A DNA stretch of 13,189 nucleotides from a virus (taxonomy: Duplodnaviria > Heunggongvirae > Uroviricota > Caudoviricetes): positions 1 through 13,189 of IMG/VR virus record IMGVR_UViG_2548876940_000012; one strand, 5' to 3'. Below the pieces are notes generated by a model, which saw only the letters and a program-made list of their open reading frames with translations, did no database searches and was not told the DNA's origin. Shown here in pieces: positions 754-9,982 of this stretch; position 1 is the stretch's first letter; every line of letters begins with the position of its first letter. Both the position numbers and the translations under genes were made by a program.

Positions 754-1131
754 TTACGCAGGTAGGTAAAGATATGATTGTGGTGGCTTAATATTACTAC
801 CTAGAGCAGAGATAGGAATTGGTTCTTTATATCTTTCCACTTCACCAATTTTTATTGCGTAGGCCTTTTCTCTACCTGAATAATATGAGTCATAAAATTG
901 CTTAGAAATACCTGCGTGTTTTTCCGTCTTTTTCCAAAGAGATTCCGGTTCGTCACTTAGTATTGATTCAATACGGAATTGACCAACAACTTTACCTAAT
1001 GGCATCGTGGCATAAATAACAACGGTGCTAATTTGCGGATTTTTGAATATACCTTTACGAAACTCGAACCGCTTTGTTCCGTTCAATATTTTTTCTGCAA
1101 ACTCAGGCTTAATGGATAATAAAACTTTCAT
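754..1131 (-). CDS. ASCH-domain (PUA-like fold) protein, 125 aa
   Basis: N-terminal GTKRFEFR matches the ASCH signature G-x-K-x-x-E-x-R. Overlaps the upstream ORF by 23 bp (1109-1131). AT-rich relative to the prophage backbone. Confidence 0.7.
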   Translation of the reverse strand: MKVLLSIKPEFAEKILNGTKRFEFRKGIFKNPQISTVVIYATMPLGKVVGQFRIESILSDEPESLWKKTEKHAGISKQFYDSYYSGREKAYAIKIGEVERYKEPIPISALGSNIKPPQSYLYLPA

Positions 1132-2182
1132 TTATCTTGCCTAACTCGATGATCTTTAAGAACTGCTCATTTGTGAGTTTAAAGTGACTCCATCGGAATG
1201 CACGCGAACCATTTAGCCCCACATGATCTATTAAAATAGCACGATTGGGTCTCTTTGGCAAAGACAGATTGTATGTGAATCTTATAATGAAAGGGTATCG
1301 ACGTTCTTTATAGATTTTTCTGAGTTCATCTTCAGAAAATACGCTAAAACGAATACAATAGTCTACAAAACTATCTTCGCTTAAAAATTCAGAAATATTT
1401 TTTACGCTCTCAACTACACATAATGTACTGGCTACAGAACGATAGCGAGCTGGCCCTTTTTTGTCTCCGGTTCTATAGATGACAATGATATCTCCTCTTT
1501 TCATTCCCATCACAGAACGCATTCCACATATGTAAATTTTATGAATGCTGTTAGCATGGGATATATCTTTGACAATATCTGGTGATTCATTTACAAGTTT
1601 TGAATCAGGGAATAGTCTAGTGTGATATTCGGGATAAATCGCCAGTAAATATTTGTTGGCCCTTGATGTCATTATTCGAGGGTAATCTAATAAAATATCA
1701 CCATAAGGCTCATGCAAAGACCTCGCATATACAAACTCTTTCCCGTTATGTGTTTCTTTTTCACCATGAATGTAAAATCCGTACGTTTGGAAAAGTTTTA
1801 TTAGATGGACGTGTTTGTCGAAAACAGTAACATAAATATCATCAGATTTTGATGAAAATGCATGGTCAAACGCTTTTTTTAGAAATCGTTGTCCGCGAAG
1901 GGTGCCTTTAGATTCAAATTTGAATGTTCCTATCTTTAGATGACGTCCTGGTGGGAGCGCTGGATTAATGTCATTTGCATCATCATTTTCTTTTAGATAC
2001 ATAAAACCTTCGATTTTATGCTTGTCATCATAGAGCACATAAGCTGATTCTCCTTCTCTGGCTTTTTTTTCTAACCAAAGAGGAAACTCTTTATAATCTT
2101 TTTTTAAAGAGTCAAAAAATGGGTCATTGTGATCAAAATCAGAGAATTTCTCATATTTTAAAGTATCCATTAAGTTCTCCAT
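1109..2182 (-). CDS. Two-domain protein, 357 aa: GNAT-like N-terminal region and PUA/EVE-like C-terminal region (tentative). Alternative start at 2170 (Met5) has a GGAG 6 nt upstream
   Basis: Residues ~45-155 have a GNAT-like pattern (RGQRFLKKAF ... IYVTVFDKHVHLIKLFQTYGFYIHGE). Residues ~215-240 (KIYICGMRSVMGMKRGDIIVIYRTG) resemble the EVE/PUA-like core. No terminator separates it from cI upstream. AT-rich. Confidence 0.65.
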   Translation of the reverse strand: MENLMDTLKYEKFSDFDHNDPFFDSLKKDYKEFPLWLEKKAREGESAYVLYDDKHKIEGFMYLKENDDANDINPALPPGRHLKIGTFKFESKGTLRGQRFLKKAFDHAFSSKSDDIYVTVFDKHVHLIKLFQTYGFYIHGEKETHNGKEFVYARSLHEPYGDILLDYPRIMTSRANKYLLAIYPEYHTRLFPDSKLVNESPDIVKDISHANSIHKIYICGMRSVMGMKRGDIIVIYRTGDKKGPARYRSVASTLCVVESVKNISEFLSEDSFVDYCIRFSVFSEDELRKIYKERRYPFIIRFTYNLSLPKRPNRAILIDHVGLNGSRAFRWSHFKLTNEQFLKIIELGKINESFIIH

Positions 2183-2250: not shown

Positions 2251-2940
2251 CTATCCATGCTTCCTATACGTCTGCGGCATGCTCCCAATAACTTTCCCGA
2301 AGATAAATACCCGGTTCATCTCATCTTTCTCGATCGGGTCCCACGGTGAGTAGCTTTTGTTATCAGAGATAACCAGCAGCTTATCCTTCATCATTTGCAG
2401 GCGCTTTACATGGGCTGTGTCGTCGTACAGAAACGCATAGATACCATCACCGTCGAAAGATTTAACCGTGATATCAACGAATAGAAGATCACCAGGTTCA
2501 ATCGTTCCTGACATGCTGTCACCGCGTACGTTAATGATGCGGATATTTTCTGCCTTCCTACCATCGAACATGTGACGAGCATCGTCAAACGAGTACTCAA
2601 CCGAGCGTAGAACTTCTACAAACTCACGGTTGATGACTCCCGGCCCAGCACTGACTTCTATATCAAGAACGTCAATCTTGAAGTATTTGGAATGGCTGAC
2701 AGTTGATTGTATTGGTTGCACTGTACTGTCTGACATATTTCCAACGCCAGAAGATAACCATTCTGCGCGCACACCCAAAGCGTTCGCGATCTCCACGATT
2801 TTAGTTGTTTGATTAGCTTTCCCTGTTTCGATTTTCTGAATAGCAGCCTGGCTAACCCCGACCAAATCCCCAAGCGCCTTTTGTGTAAGGCCTCGCGCTA
2901 ATCTGGCTTCTTTAAGTCTTTCTGAGAGTGTTGTTTTCAT
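2251..2940 (-). CDS. cI: CI-like prophage repressor: N-terminal HTH (XRE type) plus C-terminal LexA/S24-type autopeptidase domain
   Basis: MKTTLSERLKEARLARGLTQKALGDLVGVSQAAIQKIE is an HTH; the C-terminal region has GDSM...GD-LLFVD and a K, typical of S24 self-cleaving repressors. The start was moved to the internal Met at 2940 so that the operator palindrome lies outside the CDS; the longest ORF runs to 3006. Confidence 0.9.
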   Translation of the reverse strand: MKTTLSERLKEARLARGLTQKALGDLVGVSQAAIQKIETGKANQTTKIVEIANALGVRAEWLSSGVGNMSDSTVQPIQSTVSHSKYFKIDVLDIEVSAGPGVINREFVEVLRSVEYSFDDARHMFDGRKAENIRIINVRGDSMSGTIEPGDLLFVDITVKSFDGDGIYAFLYDDTAHVKRLQMMKDKLLVISDNKSYSPWDPIEKDEMNRVFIFGKVIGSMPQTYRKHG

Positions 2941-2981
2941 AGTCCAAATGTACAACCAAGGTTTTATTCCATCAAACGAAA

Positions 2982-3006
2982 ATGGTTGTTGACTAAAAAC
3001 AACCAT
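2982..3006. promoter_or_regulatory. OR operator: perfect 9-bp inverted repeat ATGGTTGTT-N7-AACAACCAT
   Basis: Read directly: ATGGTTGTT (2982-2990), gactaaa, AACAACCAT (2998-3006), between the divergent cI and cro starts. Weaker related half-sites lie at 2930-2935 and 2952-2958. Confidence 0.65.
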
Positions 3007-3044: not shown

Positions 3045-3275
3045 ATGAACCCAGCTATCAAAACAGCGATCAATATCGTTGGTTCACAAAAGAAACTGGG
3101 CGCTGCTTGCGAAGTTTCACAGCAGGCCGTCTATAAGTGGCTTCACAACAAAGCAAAGGTATCCCCTGAACATGTCGGCAGCATTGTTACGGCTACTGGT
3201 GGAGTAGTGAAGGCATACCAGATTCGCCCGGATCTTCCGAAGTTGTTTCCACACACCGAAAAGAACGCAGCTTAA
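3045..3275 (+). CDS. Cro-like HTH repressor (YdaS family), 76 aa
   Basis: First gene of the rightward operon, divergent from cI, with a GGAGG RBS. The HTH-like segment SQKKLGAACEVSQQAVYKWL matches the Rac-prophage YdaS-type Cro. Confidence 0.8.
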   Translation: MNPAIKTAINIVGSQKKLGAACEVSQQAVYKWLHNKAKVSPEHVGSIVTATGGVVKAYQIRPDLPKLFPHTEKNAA

Positions 3276-3287
3276 ATTTCCATTTCA

Positions 3288-3300
3288 CGCTCTTTAACAA
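3288..3300 (+). promoter_or_regulatory. boxA-like element (CGCTCTTTAACAA) just downstream of cro; nutR-like position
   Basis: Matches the rrn/lambda boxA core GCTCTTTAACAA as I recall it. It lies 13 nt after the cro stop. No GC-stem boxB hairpin follows. Confidence 0.5.
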
Positions 3301-3344
3301 TAAGCAATCAACTTAACAGTCAATTCAAACTAAAGGAGTCAATT

Positions 3345-3884
3345 ATGCAACCACTTACATACCAACAGACTAGCGGATTTAGCCCAACTGCGGTGATAAA
3401 TCGTTCTCAAACAAAACAGGTGCCAGGCCACGAAAAAATCCGTGATGCCGTCCGCGCCTGGTCGGCTGTAGATAATCAGGATGTCGTTGCCACACTCATT
3501 GTGAATGAGTATCGGGAGCAGGGCGGCGGCACCATCGATTTCCCTGATGATGTCAGCCGTGCACGCCAGAAGCTGTTCCGCTTCCTCGATAACAAATTCG
3601 ATTCTGAAAAATACCGAAATAACGTGCGTGAACTGACCCCGGCAATTCTGGCGGTACTACCGCTGGAATATCGCGGTTACCTGGTTGAGCAGGATAGCTT
3701 CATGACTCGGTTGGCTGAAATGGAAAAGGAACTCAGTGAGGCAAAACAGGCTGTCATTCTCAACGCACCACGCCACCAGAAACTGAAGGAAATGAGTGAA
3801 GGTATTGTGTCGATGTTTCGTGTGGACCCAGATCTGGCTGGTCCATTGATGGCGATGGTTACTACCATGCTGGGGGCGATATGA
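3345..3884 (+). CDS. YdaT-family (cII-position) regulatory protein, 179 aa
   Basis: EYREQGGG and LTPAILAVLP motifs match E. coli Rac YdaT as I recall it (EEYLRQGGG ... LIPAILAILP). AAGGAG RBS. It occupies the cII slot after cro. Confidence 0.7.
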   Translation: MQPLTYQQTSGFSPTAVINRSQTKQVPGHEKIRDAVRAWSAVDNQDVVATLIVNEYREQGGGTIDFPDDVSRARQKLFRFLDNKFDSEKYRNNVRELTPAILAVLPLEYRGYLVEQDSFMTRLAEMEKELSEAKQAVILNAPRHQKLKEMSEGIVSMFRVDPDLAGPLMAMVTTMLGAI

Positions 3885-3970
3885 CAGGTTCAGAAATGGC
3901 GAAAGCCGGTCTGCGCGAACAGAACCGACTTTCAGGTGCAAATCGTAACACACTCATTGCGGGAGGAATT

Positions 3971-4900
3971 ATGGCAAACACTGCTGAGATATTCAATTTT
4001 CCAGTGCCGGATGCGGCACAAAAGGAGCCGCGCGTGGCAGATCTCGATGATGGTTATACGCGCATTGCAAATGAGTTGCTGGAAGCTGTGATGCTGGCCG
4101 GATTAACACAGCACCAGCTTCTGGTCTTCCTGGCTGTCATGCGCAAAACATATGGCTTTAATAAAAAACTGGATTGGGTGAGCAACGAGCAACTTTCCGA
4201 GTTGACCGGGATATTGCCGCACAAGTGTTCTGCTGCAAAAAGTGTTCTGGTAAAGCGTGGGATTTTTATTCAGAGCGGGCGGAATATCGGCATTAATAAT
4301 GTGGTCAGTGAATGGTCAACATTACCCGAATCAGGTAAGAAAAATAAAGTTTACCTGAAAGAGGTAAATTTACCTGAATCAGGTAAGAAAAGTTTACCCA
4401 AATCAGGTAAAGGCGTTTACCCGAATCAGGTAAACACAAAAGACAAACTAACAAAAGACAATATAAAACCTTATTCGTCCGAGAATTCTGGCGAATACTC
4501 TGACCAGCCAGAAAACGACCTTCCTGTGGTGAAACCGGATGCTGCGATTCAGAGCGGCAGCAAGTGGGGGACAGCAGAAGACCTGACCGCCGCAGAGTGG
4601 ATGTTTGACATGGTGAAGACCATCGCACCATCAGCCAGAAAACCGAATTTTGCAGGGTGGGCTAACGATATCCGCCTGATGCGTGAACGTGACGGACGTA
4701 ACCACCGCGACATGTGTGTACTGTTCCGCTGGGCATGCCAGGACAACTTCTGGTCCGGTAACGTGCTGAGTCCGGCCAAACTCCGCGACAAGTGGACCCA
4801 GCTCGAAATCAACCGAAACAAGCAACAGGCTGGCGTGACAGCCGGCAAACCAAAACTCGACCTGACGAACACTGACTGGATTTACGGGGTGGAGCTATGA
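3971..4900 (+). CDS. O: Replication initiator O (lambda O family) with ori iterons embedded in the linker; diverged N-terminal domain and lambda-like C-terminal domain
   Basis: Start at MANTAEIFNF with a GGGAGG RBS, aligning with the lambda O start MTNTAKILNF. The C-terminus (...KPKLDLTNTDWIYGVEL) matches lambda O from memory. The ORF can extend to 3881, where an ATGA overlaps the upstream stop. Confidence 0.85.
   Translation: MANTAEIFNFPVPDAAQKEPRVADLDDGYTRIANELLEAVMLAGLTQHQLLVFLAVMRKTYGFNKKLDWVSNEQLSELTGILPHKCSAAKSVLVKRGIFIQSGRNIGINNVVSEWSTLPESGKKNKVYLKEVNLPESGKKSLPKSGKGVYPNQVNTKDKLTKDNIKPYSSENSGEYSDQPENDLPVVKPDAAIQSGSKWGTAEDLTAAEWMFDMVKTIAPSARKPNFAGWANDIRLMRERDGRNHRDMCVLFRWACQDNFWSGNVLSPAKLRDKWTQLEINRNKQQAGVTAGKPKLDLTNTDWIYGVEL
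4322..4470. repeat. Replication origin: five 17-bp iterons (consensus TTACCYGAATCAGGTAA, each an internal inverted repeat) followed by an A-rich stretch
   Basis: Iterons at 4322-4338, 4351-4367, 4370-4386, 4394-4410 and 4417-4433, then acacaaaagacaaactaacaaaagacaatataaaacc. The arrangement matches ori-lambda inside O, but the iteron sequence differs from lambda. Confidence 0.8.
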
Positions 4901-5598
4901 AAAACATCGCCGCACAGATGGTTAACTTTGACCGTGAGCAGATGCGTCGGATCGCCAACAACATGCCGGAACAGTACGACGAAAAGCCGCAGGTACAACA
5001 GGTAGCGCAGATCATCAATGGTGTGTTCAGCCAGTTACTAGCAACTTTCCCGGCGAGCCTGGCTAACCGGGACCAGAACGAACTGAACGAAATCCGCCGC
5101 CAGTGGGTGCTGGCTTTCCGGGAAAACGGGATCACCACAATGGAACAGGTTAACGCAGGAATGCGCGTAGCCCGTCGGCAGAATCGACCATTCCTGCCAT
5201 CACCCGGGCAGTTTGTCGCCTGGTGCCGGGAAGAAGCATCCGTTACCGCCGGGCTGCCAAACGCCAGCGAGCTGGTTGATATGGTTTACGAGTATTGCCG
5301 GAAGCGTGGCCTGTATCCGGACGCAGAGTCTTATCCATGGAAATCAAACGCGCACTACTGGCTGGTTACCAACCTGTACCAGAACATGCGGGCCAATGCG
5401 CTTACTGATGCGGAATTACGGCGCAAGGCTGCCGATGAACTGTCCTGTATGACCGCGCGAATTAACCGTGGTGAGGCGATACCTGAACCAGTAAAACAGC
5501 TTCCTGTCATGGGCGGTAGACCTCTAAATCGTGCACAGGCTCTGGCGAAGATCGCAGAAATCAAAGCTAAGTTTGGGCTGAAAGGAGCAAGTGTATGA
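4897..5598 (+). CDS. P: Replication protein P (DnaB helicase loader), lambda P-like, 233 aa
   Basis: Sequence MKNIAAQMVNFDREQMRRIANNMPEQYDEKPQ... is recognised as near-identical to lambda P (from memory). ATGA overlap with the O stop. Confidence 0.9.
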   Translation: MKNIAAQMVNFDREQMRRIANNMPEQYDEKPQVQQVAQIINGVFSQLLATFPASLANRDQNELNEIRRQWVLAFRENGITTMEQVNAGMRVARRQNRPFLPSPGQFVAWCREEASVTAGLPNASELVDMVYEYCRKRGLYPDAESYPWKSNAHYWLVTNLYQNMRANALTDAELRRKAADELSCMTARINRGEAIPEPVKQLPVMGGRPLNRAQALAKIAEIKAKFGLKGASV

Positions 5599-5768
5599 CG
5601 GGCAAAGAGGCAATTATTTATTACCTGGGGACGCATAAGAGCTTCTGTGCGCAGGACGTTGCTGCGGCAACAGGTGTGACAGTAACCTGCATAAATCAGG
5701 CAGCAGCTAAAATGGCGCGTGCAGGAATCCTGGTCATTGATGGTAAGGTCTGGCGAACGTTTGTTTAA
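5595..5768 (+). CDS. ren: Ren-like protein, C-terminally truncated relative to lambda Ren (57 aa here, ~96 aa in lambda)
   Basis: ATGA overlap with the P stop. MTGKEAIIYYLGTH...INQAAAKMARAGILVIDGKVWRT resembles the lambda Ren N-terminus as recalled. The ORF stops early where the AT-rich moron island begins. Not in the ORF track because it is under 60 aa. Confidence 0.55.
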   Translation: MTGKEAIIYYLGTHKSFCAQDVAAATGVTVTCINQAAAKMARAGILVIDGKVWRTFV

Positions 5769-5914
5769 CGGTTAGCTACTCAGGATGATAGGGTGGGGCA
5801 AGTGAGTATGAAGCGGATTTTCAGGAATGCCGTCAGAGTTTGGAAATAAAGTGGGTTTTCTAGTGGCAAGAGACTTGATAATATTTAGTTCTTTAAATCC
5901 AAGGAGATAGGGTT

Positions 5915-6409
5915 ATGAGAAAATTTATTTTAGCCTTTGTCATAAGTGCCTCGTTTACAGCAAATGCTGGTGTAGAGAAGTTAGGGCCGTGGATAACAAA
6001 GTCTGAGATAAATAAAATGACTGACCAGACTGACTTTGTGGCTCTTAATTTATCACCAGATTCATATAACAAAGCAGGTACTGATCGTGCAACTTCACTG
6101 GTGTTGCGTTGTAGTGATAACAAAACAGATGCCTATTTATCATTCAATGATTATATGGGGTCGGACAACCCAAGAATTACAGTGCGGTTAGATGGCGGAA
6201 AGCCGGTCAAGAGTGTTTGGGGAGGTGGGGAAGGCGGTGATTCTGCATTTGCTCCACAACCAATACAATTTATAAAGACCTTGGCTAAGCATAAAAAAGC
6301 TATTTTTGGGTTTGAACCTTATGGATCAACTATGCAAGTAGTTGAGTTTGACTTGTCTGAGATTGATAAGGTTGTGGAAAAAATTTCACAGTCTTGCAAT
6401 TGGAAATGA
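5915..6409 (+). CDS. Secreted/periplasmic hypothetical protein with Sec signal peptide (moron)
   Basis: N-terminal MRKFILAFVISASFTANA with an A-N-A cleavage motif. AAGGAGA RBS. Two Cys residues (C66, C161). AT-rich. Followed by an intrinsic terminator. Confidence 0.7.
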   Translation: MRKFILAFVISASFTANAGVEKLGPWITKSEINKMTDQTDFVALNLSPDSYNKAGTDRATSLVLRCSDNKTDAYLSFNDYMGSDNPRITVRLDGGKPVKSVWGGGEGGDSAFAPQPIQFIKTLAKHKKAIFGFEPYGSTMQVVEFDLSEIDKVVEKISQSCNWK

Positions 6410-6426
6410 CAAAAAAATTTCATATG

Positions 6427-6454
6427 AACCCAGTTGGCGCTGGGTTTTTTATTT
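6427..6454 (+). terminator. Rho-independent terminator after the secreted-protein gene
   Basis: Stem AACCCAG / CTGGGTT (6427-6433 and 6440-6446), loop TTGGCG, then a T-run TTTTTTATTT. Confidence 0.65.
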
Positions 6455-6873
6455 CAGTAGCCAATAATGCATTCAAAATCTCTTACTTGAGAAACGGCCT
6501 ATTTGAGATTTCAGTCGTGGCAGGATGATCAGTTGATTCGAGTATTGACGCATTTACGTTCTGAACGGCTGTAATAAAGTTGCGGGAGAGAAATGCCGCT
6601 AGTATTTTGTAATTAATTGAATGCTGAAGGTTTAATGAGAAGTCAAGAACACTACTTGTACTATAATCGTTCGATGTTAGTGAGGGTTTGATGCAAAAAA
6701 TGAAGTGATTGACCCTAAATTTGCGCGATCAGCGACAGATTGTACACCGAGATCCTGTGGGCTGGAATTTGCAGAGAAATACCGAAAATGATATCCAATA
6801 TTGTTTTCAGTTCCTACATCATACCTGATAAGGGTATAATCATAAAAATTAGGATAATTCAAGTTATAATTGT

Positions 6874-7290
6874 ATGAATAAAAACGACCTTGAAGCATTA
6901 TCTGACACTAGGCTTAATGAGGCCAAATGCTTGCTTGATCATGGCTTTTTTCATGGTGCATATTATCTTTGTGGGTATGCAGTTGAATGTGCATTGAAGG
7001 CCTGTATTGCCAAGTCATTTTTACAACATGAGTTTCCAAACAAAAAAGTCGTAAATGATTCATATACTCATGATTTGTCGCAACTTCTCAAAATTGCCAA
7101 CTTACATCAAATTTTGATTGCTGACGCAAAAAATGATGTTTCGTTGGAGATTAACTGGTCGGTCGTTAAAGACTGGAGCGAGCAATTTAGATACGACAAT
7201 AACATAAGTAAAGCTATGGCCGAACAATTGTTTGATGCTGTAGGTGACCAAAATTCTGGAGTTTTGAAATGGGTAAAAGCACACTGGTAA
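6874..7290 (+). CDS. HEPN-domain protein (classical HEPN type), 138 aa; putative RNase toxin/effector
   Basis: Helix motif GAYYLCGYAVECALKA (E-x2-LKA), H-D-L motif (SYTHDLSQLL) and a later R-Y (EQFRYDN), as in classical HEPN/HepT-type domains. A GGAG for the downstream gene lies inside its 3' end. Confidence 0.65.
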   Translation: MNKNDLEALSDTRLNEAKCLLDHGFFHGAYYLCGYAVECALKACIAKSFLQHEFPNKKVVNDSYTHDLSQLLKIANLHQILIADAKNDVSLEINWSVVKDWSEQFRYDNNISKAMAEQLFDAVGDQNSGVLKWVKAHW

Positions 7291-7670
7291 TCGGCAGAGA
7301 GTTGACAAAAGATATGGAATTCTCAGGTCAATTTTTATTAAAAAAACTCAAGTTACAGAATTTAACTATTGATGCTGCAATGTGGTTTTATTACCCAGAT
7401 CTATCTTGGAGATATATTTTAGTTATCAGTGACTTCTCAGAACGTGGACCGGCAGAAATATATAGAAAAATCAGTGAGATAAATAGAAATAGCATATCAA
7501 AAAAGTATAAGCCGATACCATTAGAAGCAATTGAGGCTAAGGGGGATTCAGCTTTTATTTATAAAATGTTAAAAGGATTTGCTAGAGTCAACGATGGTAA
7601 AGTTCGCGTTTCTAATTCTATGGTAAATGGTTTAGAAATCGTTGACTGTCTGATCTATGAGTTAAAATAA
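7269..7670 (+). CDS. Hypothetical protein, 133 aa; overlapping partner of the HEPN gene; no nucleotidyltransferase (MNT) motif detected
   Basis: Overlaps the HEPN ORF by 22 bp, with a GGAG 8 nt upstream of its ATG. Lacks the G-S...D-x-D/E Pol-beta signature. AT-rich. Confidence 0.55.
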   Translation: MGKSTLVIGRELTKDMEFSGQFLLKKLKLQNLTIDAAMWFYYPDLSWRYILVISDFSERGPAEIYRKISEINRNSISKKYKPIPLEAIEAKGDSAFIYKMLKGFARVNDGKVRVSNSMVNGLEIVDCLIYELK

Positions 7671-7741
7671 GAAATCTCTTGCTGGGTATCATTATTGTTT
7701 AAATGACTTTTGATTTTCAATAATCAACTTGTCATAATTAA

Positions 7742-7770
7742 GTCACCGGAGTTTGAACTCCTCCGGTGAC
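7742..7770. other. Stable GC-rich hairpin (GTCACCGGAG ... CTCCGGTGAC) between the moron island and the nin genes; no clear T-tract
   Basis: 10-bp perfect inverted repeat with a 9-nt loop, read directly. Possible terminator or processing site at the module boundary. Confidence 0.4.
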
Positions 7771-7891
7771 TTCTGCGCTAAACGGGGACGTTTATGCGCA
7801 CATACAATCCAAACTCTCTTCTCCCTTCACAGATGCAGAAATGTACCTGCGATTTTTTGCATCCAGCGTTTGACCTCTGCGGAGGTGAATC

Positions 7892-8347
7892 GTGAACCTC
7901 CTACAAGATGGCATCAAATTGCATCGTGGTAACTTCACCGCTATCGGCCAGCAGATCCAGCCTTATCTGGAGGACGGCAAATGCTTTCGCATGGTGCTTA
8001 AACCGTGGCGCGAGAGACGCAGTCTTTCCCAGAATGCACTCAGCCACATGTGGTACAGCGAAATCAGTGAATACCTCATCAGCAAGGGTAAAACGTTCGC
8101 CACTCCAGCTTGGGTAAAAGATGCTCTCAAACACACATATCTCGGTTATGAAACCAAAGAGCTGGTTGATGTCGTAACCGGTGATATCACCACTATCCAG
8201 TCGTTACGCCATACCTCCGATCTTGATACCGGAGAGATGTATGTCTTCCTGTGTAAGGTTGAAGCCTGGGCGATGAATATTGGTTGCCATCTGACTATTC
8301 CGCAGAGCTGCGAGTTCCAGCTGCTGCGCGACAAGCAGGAGGCGTAA
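7892..8347 (+). CDS. ybcN: NinB/YbcN-family protein (DLP12 YbcN-like), 151 aa
   Basis: GTG start with a GGAGG RBS. The [11 protein letters not shown] motif resembles the NinB SLDQN motif. It sits at the head of the ninE-ybcO-rusA-ylcG cluster, as in DLP12. Confidence 0.75.
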
Positions 8348-8517
8348 TGGCTACACCGCTTATTCGTGTCATGAACGGACACATCTACAAAGTACCAAAT
8401 CGTCGTAAGCGTAAACCTGAGCTGAAGCCATCCGAAATACCAACTCTGCTCGGATATACCGCCAGCCTGGTTGATAAAAAATGGTTGCGACTGGCAGCAA
8501 GGAGGAATCATGGCTGA
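8347..8517 (+). CDS. ninE: NinE-family protein, 56 aa
   Basis: TAATG overlap with the upstream stop. PNRRKRKPELKP ... YTASLVDKKWLRLAARR parallels lambda NinE (PTKRTRNKPKP ... YTAHLWDIRWLRRRAR) from memory. Confidence 0.7.
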   Translation: MATPLIRVMNGHIYKVPNRRKRKPELKPSEIPTLLGYTASLVDKKWLRLAARRNHG

Positions 8518-8800
8518 TTTGAGAAAAGCAGCGCGTGGTCGGGAATGCCAGGTAAGAATCCCTGGCGTATGTAATGGCAATTCTGAAACGTCTGTACTGG
8601 CACATATCCGGCTGACTGGATTGTGCGGCACCGGTACGAAACCGCCAGACCTGATTGCCACCATTGCATGTTCTGCCTGCCACGACGAAATCGACCGCCG
8701 CACGCATTTTGTTGACGCTGGATATGCAAAAGAATGCGCGCTGGAAGGTATGGCGAGAACGCAGGTTATCTGGCTGAAAGAGGGGGTAATTAAGGCGTGA
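8510..8800 (+). CDS. ybcO: YbcO-family putative nuclease (DLP12 YbcO-like), 96 aa
   Basis: Start at [10 protein letters not shown] with a GGAGG RBS. Cys-rich CNGN...CSACHDEID motif. Recognised as near-identical to E. coli YbcO from memory. Confidence 0.8.
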
Positions 8801-9159
8801 ATACCTACAGCATCACATTACCCTGGCCTCCGAGCAATAATCGCTATTACCGCCATAATCGCGGGCGCACGCACGTCAGCGCAGAGGGGCAGGCATACCG
8901 CGATAACGTCGCCCGAATCATTAAAAACGCAATGCTGGATATCGGCCTGGCTATGCCTGTGAAAATCCGTATTGAGTGCCACATGCCGGATCGCCGTCGC
9001 CGTGACCTGGATAATCTGCAAAAAGCCGCTTTTGACGCACTCACCAAAGCAGGTTTCTGGCTGGATGATGTTCAGGTCGTTGATTACCGTGTTGTGAAGA
9101 TGCCCGTTACCAAAGGTGGGAAGCTGGAGCTGACCATCACTGAACTGGGGAATGAATGA
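8797..9159 (+). CDS. rusA: RusA Holliday-junction resolvase, 120 aa
   Basis: [24 protein letters not shown]... is recognised as essentially the E. coli RusA sequence (from memory). GTGA overlap with the ybcO stop. Confidence 0.9.
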
Positions 9160-9296
9160 TGTTTGAGTCTTATATGGCAGAACGTCTTCGCCACCGCTGG
9201 ATGCGCCTGCGCTTATATCGTTTCCCCGGTTCTGTTTTGACCGATTACCGGATACTGAAGAATTACACCAAAACACTGAAAGGAGCTGCCGCATGA
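9156..9296 (+). CDS. ylcG: YlcG-like small protein, 46 aa
   Basis: Translated by hand: [46 protein letters not shown]. Overlaps the rusA stop and the downstream ATG (ATGA). Same position as ylcG in DLP12. Confidence 0.6.
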
Positions 9297-9982
9297 ATAC
9301 CCAATATTTACAGTATGTCCGCGAGCAACTCATTGTGGCTACTGCTGATTTGAGCGGAGCAACTAAAGGCCAGCTTGAAGCTTGGCTGGAGCATGCACAA
9401 TTTGATACTGGTACATATAAACGAAAGAAGCCGCGCATTCTGGATGAGGTAACGGGCAAGATGATTACGCTGGATAATCCGCCGATTTCCGGTAAGCAGT
9501 CGTACGCAAAAGGTTCATCCATTGCACTGGTCAGCCAGGTTGAGTTCTCAACCTCGTCATGGCGCCGCGCGGTTCTGTCTCTCGATGAACATCAGAAAGC
9601 GTGGTTGCTGTGGAGTTACAGCGAAAGTGTTCGCTGGGAGCATCAGGTCACCATAACGCAGTGGGTATGGAGCGAGTTTAAGACTCTGTTGGGTACCAGG
9701 AAAATTGCAGGTAAGACACTGGAACGTTTGAAGAAGTTGATCTGGCTGGCGGCACAGGATGTGAAGAACGAGCTGGCAGGGCGTAAGACCTATGAATACC
9801 AGGAGCTGGCATCACTGGTGGGAGTGACATCAAAAAACTGGTCTGAGACATTTACTGAACGCTGGGTTGCAATGAAGCACATTTTTCTACAGCTTGATAG
9901 CCAAGCTTTATTGCTTTTAACGAAAACACGTTCAAAACAAAAGGCCACATTTTCACAGCAAGATATTGCAAAACTGGATTAA
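9293..9982 (+). CDS. Putative late-gene antiterminator (Q-like), 229 aa
   Basis: The call is positional: last gene before a ~300-bp noncoding region with an intrinsic terminator, followed by the lysis cassette. No Zn-finger Cys pattern as in lambda Q, so the family is unassigned. Confidence 0.5.
   Translation: MNTQYLQYVREQLIVATADLSGATKGQLEAWLEHAQFDTGTYKRKKPRILDEVTGKMITLDNPPISGKQSYAKGSSIALVSQVEFSTSSWRRAVLSLDEHQKAWLLWSYSESVRWEHQVTITQWVWSEFKTLLGTRKIAGKTLERLKKLIWLAAQDVKNELAGRKTYEYQELASLVGVTSKNWSETFTERWVAMKHIFLQLDSQALLLLTKTRSKQKATFSQQDIAKLD

Follow-up and report, generated by a model that had tools for sequence, protein, structure and literature searches.

Five copies of a 17-bp palindromic repeat of the type TTACCYGAATCAGGTAA, together with the A-rich box that follows them, very probably serve a lambdoid prophage as its replication origin, which lies within the initiator gene O as in phage lambda. 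The DNA analyzed here (the window, 13,189 bp in all) comes from a lambdoid phage or prophage of E. coli whose late-regulation region is 82-like, an assignment based on 96.6% identity to phage 82 (see below) and on the frequent occurrence of its O protein in Escherichia coli. The anatomy of the origin region, its homologies, the recombination junction and the conservation of the iterons at the DNA level are established here. The main features are as follows.

3971-4900, plus strand: gene O, replication initiator, 309 aa; Pfam PF04492 (Phage_rep_O) at aa 21-115, E 7.5e-34
3971-4321, plus strand: N-terminal part of O, putative origin-binding domain; 48% (aa) and 53% (nt) identical to lambda, 84% (aa) to Klebsiella phage GZ7
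4322-4433, plus strand: five iterons; 40% (nt) identical to lambda
4434-4470, plus strand: A-rich box, ACACAAAAGACAAACTAACAAAAGACAATATAAAACC, with two ACAAAAGACAA repeats, 65% A; 76% (nt) identical to lambda
4471-4900, plus strand: C-terminal part of O, lambda-type, putative P-binding region; 96% (nt) and 97% (aa) identical to lambda O
4897-5598, plus strand: gene P, DnaB helicase loader of the lambda type, overlapping the O stop; PF06992 (Phage_lambda_P), E 8e-62; 95% (nt) identical to lambda

The sequence hallmarks of a lambda-family O/P origin are all found in this region. The repeats lie inside a Phage_rep_O initiator gene (4322-4433 within 3971-4900), they include at least four dyad iterons of about 17-19 bp in the 20/24/23 register, a strand-asymmetric A/T-rich region stands directly to the right of the last iteron, and a P loader gene directly follows the coding sequence for the C-terminal domain of O. 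The specificity type is not that of ori-lambda proper, shared by lambda, 434 and 21, given the 40% nucleotide identity in the iteron region and the 48% amino acid identity in the O N-terminus.

Genes O and P

The O protein aligns with lambda O from M1 and is 67% identical to it overall, and P matches lambda P at 229 of 233 residues (98%); both genes are full-length and intact in the window. Sequence records often start O at the ATG at 3881, giving a protein of 339 aa whose start overlaps the stop of the YdaT-like gene as ATGA, and NCBI holds both the 309-aa and the 339-aa forms, labelled "replication protein". The homologues in lambda, GZ7 and SEN34 align from MANTAE at the ATG at 3971, which has a GGAGG 5 nt upstream. 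The 30-aa extension from 3881 is thus probably an artefact of annotation, and the findings favor 3971 over the commonly annotated start. A search of solved structures with the O sequence gave no match. A single-sequence AlphaFold2 model of O aa 1-125 was unreliable (pLDDT 42) and too poor for a fold search; its helix-helix-helix-helix-hairpin order loosely fits a winged helix and carries no evidential weight.

The iterons as DNA sites

The preliminary description had placed five palindromic 17-bp iterons inside O, and both their coordinates and their description proved correct. The TTACCYGAATCAGGTAA pattern matches five times on the plus strand between 4322 and 4433, with 0, 2, 0, 1 and 0 mismatches, and has no further match in the window. 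Chance would give 0.05 matches, and none of 200 dinucleotide-preserving shuffles reached the observed count (10, since both strands of each near-palindrome are counted). A repeat finder also picked out this family, whose copies start 29, 19, 24 and 23 bp apart, and each copy is a near-palindrome with dyad symmetry.

4322-4338, plus strand: iteron 1, TTACCCGAATCAGGTAA; no mismatch to the pattern, one arm mismatch; the upstream extra copy relative to the four-iteron lambda layout
4351-4367, plus strand: iteron 2, TTACCTGAAAGAGGTAA; two mismatches, degenerate center
4370-4386, plus strand: iteron 3, TTACCTGAATCAGGTAA; no mismatch, perfect 8+1+8 palindrome
4394-4410, plus strand: iteron 4, TTACCCAAATCAGGTAA; one mismatch
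4417-4433, plus strand: iteron 5, TTACCCGAATCAGGTAA; no mismatch, one arm mismatch; adjoins the A-rich box

The spacing had been called irregular, and this does not hold: the last four copies stand at 19/24/23, against 20/24/23 in the family, with one additional copy 29 bp upstream. The 20/24/23 register, with four copies in each case, is shared by lambda (ATCCCTCAAAACGAGGGA), HK97 (TTAGCCAAGTCGGCTAA), P22 (TTTACCAGATCGGTAAA) and PhiR12_1 (TGTCACCAAAACGGTGACA), and the SEN34 iterons (TTAGCGGAAGTTGCTAA) are spaced at 24/23. The window thus resembles lambda in having its origin in the middle of gene O, with dyad repeats of about 17-19 bp at roughly 20/24/23, then an A-rich box, and a two-domain O protein. 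It differs, as had been claimed, in the iteron itself, which is TTACCYGAATCAGGTAA in five copies rather than ATCCCTCAAAACGAGGGA in four.

A related iteron is found in the gene 18 origin of P22, which has four repeats at 20/24/23 and an A-rich box nearly identical to that of the window. The two share the arms TTTACC...GGTAAA and a GAATC core (window 4369-4435 against 1802-1888 of the P22 sequence compared), but the P22 repeats have one bp less on each side of the core, so that the spacer between the arms is 5 bp instead of 7. The P22 and window iterons are a natural spacing variant of one half-site.

The iterons had also been said to encode an LPESGKK-like peptide repeated in the O linker. This is correct for iterons 1, 3 and 4, which give LPESGK, LPESGK and LPKSGK; it fails for iterons 2 and 5, which are read in another frame and translate as VYLKEVN and VYPNQVN. 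Because the copies are read in two frames, the conserved entity is the DNA and not the peptide. Comparison with four Klebsiella-type relatives points the same way: identity is 89-92% in the iterons, 56-70% in the spacers between them and 76-79% in the N-terminal coding DNA, and none of the five copies shows a change in the TTACC/GGTA arms. These data bear on the idea that the repeats serve only as a coding repeat for a flexible, Lys/Ser/Gly-rich linker of O, with the origin lying elsewhere. Three copies do give LP(E/K)SGK where the interdomain linker of lambda O aligns. However, two of the five copies encode unrelated peptides in a different frame, every copy is a dyad-symmetric DNA palindrome, the iteron bases are better conserved than both the spacers and the N-terminal coding DNA, and the repeats occupy the place in the O alignment that is homologous to the lambda iterons, agreeing in position and spacing with these experimentally defined sites. 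A coding repeat alone deserves almost no credence and was rejected, since the copies are read in two frames and are conserved as DNA.

The extra upstream iteron

Alignment with lambda leaves a 30-nt gap exactly at iteron 1, and this extra copy adds 10 aa to the O linker relative to lambda O. A similar arrangement occurs in the Stx phages 933W and P27, which also have extra iterons upstream of the core four and a lengthened O (PMC7466680); these phages differ from the window in having six iterons of lambda specificity. The extra upstream iterons of the Stx phages are bound weakly in vitro and needed in vivo (PMC7466680), and the extra iteron of the window may, by analogy, behave in the same way. 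Together with the degenerate center of iteron 2, the weak binding of extra iterons in Stx phages argues that the five copies need not be equivalent sites.

A possible reading, to be entertained with some reserve, is that iterons 2-5 alone make up the working origin and that iteron 1, 29 bp upstream, is accessory or regulatory, for instance by adjusting O-some geometry or dependence on host factors, a role that has been proposed for the additional iterons in Stx phages. The spacing of iterons 2-5 fits the four-iteron layout of lambda, HK97, P22 and PhiR12_1, the insertion relative to lambda falls precisely on iteron 1, and in Stx phages four of six iterons are strongly bound while the extra ones are required in vivo (PMC7466680). 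On the other hand, iteron 1 is a perfect match to the consensus and iteron 2 is the degenerate copy, and the arms of all five are kept in the Klebsiella relatives, in which iteron 1 retains its arms around a different center. This reading refines the explanation of the repeats and A-rich box as a lambda-like origin and does not replace it.

A mosaic initiator

The O protein was compared in three segments (N-terminal aa 1-116, linker aa 117-165, C-terminus aa 166-309) with those of seven other phages. Amino acid identities to the window O are, in that order:

lambda: 48%, 31%, 97%
434: 48%, 36%, 96%
PhiR12_1: 39%, 26%, 97%
SEN34: 60%, 44%, 78%
Klebsiella phage GZ7: 84%, 69%, 23%
P22: 58%, 39%, 18%
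HK97: 43%, 34%, 18%

The preliminary description held that the O N-terminus had diverged from lambda O while the C-terminus and P had stayed nearly identical, and the first line of this comparison, with a C-terminal 144 aa at 97% and P at 98%, bears out both statements. Alignment with lambda O, which it had proposed as the way to find the recombination junction, puts the junction at about 4464-4471, on the right margin of the A-rich box, where DNA identity to lambda climbs from roughly 40-53% to 96%.

The A-rich stretch had been correctly placed right after the iterons. Its plus strand is 65% A (4434-4470), compared with 30% across the whole O gene. The ACAAAAGACAA repeats after the iterons are common to the window, lambda, HK97, P22, PhiR12_1 and SEN34, and the box as a whole is 90-97% identical to those of P22, SEN34 and the Klebsiella phages, against 76% for lambda. 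Direct reading confirms that it is of the SEN34/Klebsiella/P22 kind, with lambda-type sequence beginning at TTATTCGTC at 4471. The Klebsiella-type relatives part from the window at about 4464. In megablast searches, 434, 21, SfI and many Stx1 phages align only from about 4421-4434 of the window onward. Two independent mosaic comparisons, one with lambda-type and one with Klebsiella-type phages, therefore locate the exchange where the A-rich box ends on its right.

On the left side, similarity to GZ7, SEN34 and lambda starts only at the Shine-Dalgarno sequence and ATG of O, and the oop 5' box ACTGGATCAATCCACAGGAGTAATTATG, conserved in lambda, GZ7, SEN34 and P22, is replaced upstream of the window O. 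Taken with the right junction, this left limit delimits a specificity module of about 3963-4470, in which the iterons are, as judged from these comparisons, inherited as one unit together with the A-rich box and the N-terminal domain of O.

The same module occurs on a different C-terminus in the Klebsiella phages and their kin. GZ7, KO-TP1, ST11-VIM1phi8.2 and the prophage of E. coli CUVET21-424 share with the window the iteron, its five copies at 29/19/24/23 and the A-rich box, and in this group the N-terminal domain is 84% identical to that of the window. The O C-terminus of GZ7, however, is unrelated (23%), and the gene downstream of O in GZ7, ST11-VIM1phi8.2 and the CUVET21-424 prophage encodes a loader of the DnaC/AAA ATPase type; in KO-TP1 the downstream gene is annotated "putative replication protein P". 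P22 likewise has an unrelated C-terminus (18%), with the DnaB-type helicase gp12 in place of P. Conversely, PhiR12_1 and SEN34 carry other types of iteron and N-terminus on a lambda-type C-terminus with P. These independent mosaics in PhiR12_1, SEN34 and the Klebsiella phages support the modular exchange suggested from the start, in which origin specificity was swapped and the O-P interaction surface kept, and all of its elements check out at the level of sequence.

The type of iteron tracks the N-terminal domain. Identity in this domain is 84% where the iterons are the same, 58% in P22 with its related arms, and 39-48% in phages with different iterons (lambda, HK97 and PhiR12_1). At the putative start of the recognition helix, TTACC arms pair with LPHKCS (window and GZ7) and APTKCS (P22), TTAGC arms with HHTH(V)C (SEN34 and HK97), and TCCCTC with PVKRCN (lambda). 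In this small sample, the start of the recognition helix thus seems to co-vary with the half-site.

Initiation at the proposed origin

In lambda, O dimers on four iterons form the O-some, and the adjacent A/T-rich tract is then unwound (PMC7466680, PMC6022878). Lambda O has two domains, an N-terminal one for DNA binding and a C-terminal one for binding P, and a flexible linker connects the two (PMC7466680; PMC6022878). By analogy, we infer that O binding, unwinding and origin function reside at 4322-4470 in the window, and the A-rich box at 4434-4470 is presumed to be the DNA-unwinding element. Dimers of the O N-terminal domain would bind each iteron, as TTACC-N7-GGTAA dyads, to build an O-some, as expected from homology with lambda; the A-rich box next to it would be destabilized; the lambda-type O C-terminus would recruit a lambda-type P-DnaB complex; and host chaperones would free DnaB, so that theta replication could begin. 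On this reading, recombination where the A-rich box ends on the right has fused the specificity module with a lambda-type module of O C-terminus and P. The literature searched yielded no binding, footprinting or replication data for the TTACCYGAATCAGGTAA iteron type.

Beyond annotation these findings have little import, but they illustrate cleanly, in a natural case, the classical build of lambdoid initiators from two modules, in which the N-terminal domain and iterons set origin specificity, the C-terminus sets helicase-loader specificity, and exchange takes place at the A-rich box. They can guide the annotation of rep_origin features in the large number of E. coli prophages with this module, and they predict groups of replication incompatibility and compatibility among co-resident lambdoid prophages.

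Relation to phage 82

Moore, Denniston and Blattner (1981) reportedly described an origin of phage 82 with five repeats, together with an O whose right half is lambda-like and a P that is interchangeable. The pattern that we take to be that of ori82, with five repeats, an O N-terminus specific to the type and a P compatible with lambda, is also the pattern of the window. The region from 7708 to 9982 of the window is 96.6% identical to the orf151-rus-orf96-orf56-Q82 region of phage 82 (X92588), and the late-regulation region is accordingly of the phage 82 type. Five repeats, an O/P mosaic and linkage to an 82-type nin/Q region, taken here as the features of ori82, are thus all present in the window. 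The reported five-repeat ori82 and the 82-like rus/Q region together make it likely that the origin in the window is the classical ori82.

A literature search for the phage 82 ori or O sequence gave only citations (Furth and Yates 1978; Moore et al. 1979), the phage sequence collection searched held no record of phage 82 ori or O, and a full-text literature search for the iteron string returned no paper. The lambda-82 and lambda-phi80 hybrid O proteins of Furth and Yates (1978) are taken here as they are cited in PMC6022878. Modular exchange in O is classical lambda genetics, with its two-domain O and swappable origin specificity, and is not new. The kind of origin seen in the window is therefore already known, and very probably so are its details.

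If the origin were not ori82, the commonest O/ori type of E. coli prophages, present in about 42% of complete genomes, would be biochemically uncharacterized; this outcome is unlikely. The window would then offer a natural system for learning how origin specificity depends on the geometry of the O dimer and on the number of iterons, with P22-like arms set 2 bp further apart and a fifth copy upstream.

Distribution

Among 5,426 complete E. coli genomes, 2,297 contain the N-terminus and iterons (3971-4470) over at least 80% of that length, in nearly every case at 95% identity or more, and 2,371 contain the junction-spanning segment 4300-4620. The exact O protein appears many times in NCBI as "replication protein [Escherichia coli]", and its 90%-identity cluster has 7,825 members. 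Among sampled members of differing length, the differences are start-codon calls or truncations, and no variation in iteron number was found. The module is also present at 95% nucleotide identity or more in at least 15 sequenced E. coli phage genome records, and phage records routinely annotate the gene as replication protein O.

This distribution weighs against the notion that a cryptic prophage has left the module here as a decayed remnant, with the anatomy of an origin that no longer fires. The neighboring ren gene is indeed truncated, to 57 aa. However, O and P are full-length and intact, the five iterons are conserved in thousands of genomes with a constant number in the sampled cluster members, and at least 15 phage genome records contain near-identical modules (at least 98% nucleotide identity over the iteron region). 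Decay is accordingly very improbable, and from its presence in these phage records the origin is presumably functional.

Neighboring genes

The early region to the left of O contains the following genes.

754-2182, minus strand: pair of genes to the left of the cI-like repressor, where lambda has rexAB; matches to the PADLOC candidate defence pair PDC-M11A (E 2e-133) and PDC-M11B (ASCH-domain protein, E 7e-52)
2251-3006, minus strand: CI-type repressor, S24/HTH, upstream of O
3045-3275: YdaS/Cro-type gene, PF15943, upstream of O
3345-3884: YdaT-type gene, PF06254, upstream of O

The positions of Cro and CII (3045-3884) are thus taken by YdaS-type and YdaT-type proteins, not by lambda Cro and CII, and the YdaT-like gene is called "cII" by position in phage records. 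A sigma-70-like promoter, TTGAAT-17-CATAAT with an extended -10 TG, lies on the minus strand at 3968-3996 and points leftward over the O start, in the same place as pO (oop RNA) of lambda. No terminator was found with it (3885-3970), the minus-strand fold upstream of O is not significant (z -1.6), and an Rfam search of the window gave no match.

Downstream of P are the truncated ren, a small cargo block, a NinB-like gene, RusA, the Q antiterminator and lysis genes. The 57-aa ren product matches lambda Ren over its first 55 aa at 85% identity. The cargo block (within 5595-7670) encodes a VasI-like protein (5915-6409) and a HEPN-domain protein (6874-7290) with a weak match to PADLOC PDC-M28A, overlapped by a 133-aa ORF without a match. 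Related phages have other cargo in this place, and the region after ren may be a variable cargo or defence site. In PhiR26_1 the post-ren cargo is annotated PD-lambda-1, and HipA/HipD (PhiR5_1) and GevT (PhiR47_2) are annotated somewhere within the matched early regions.
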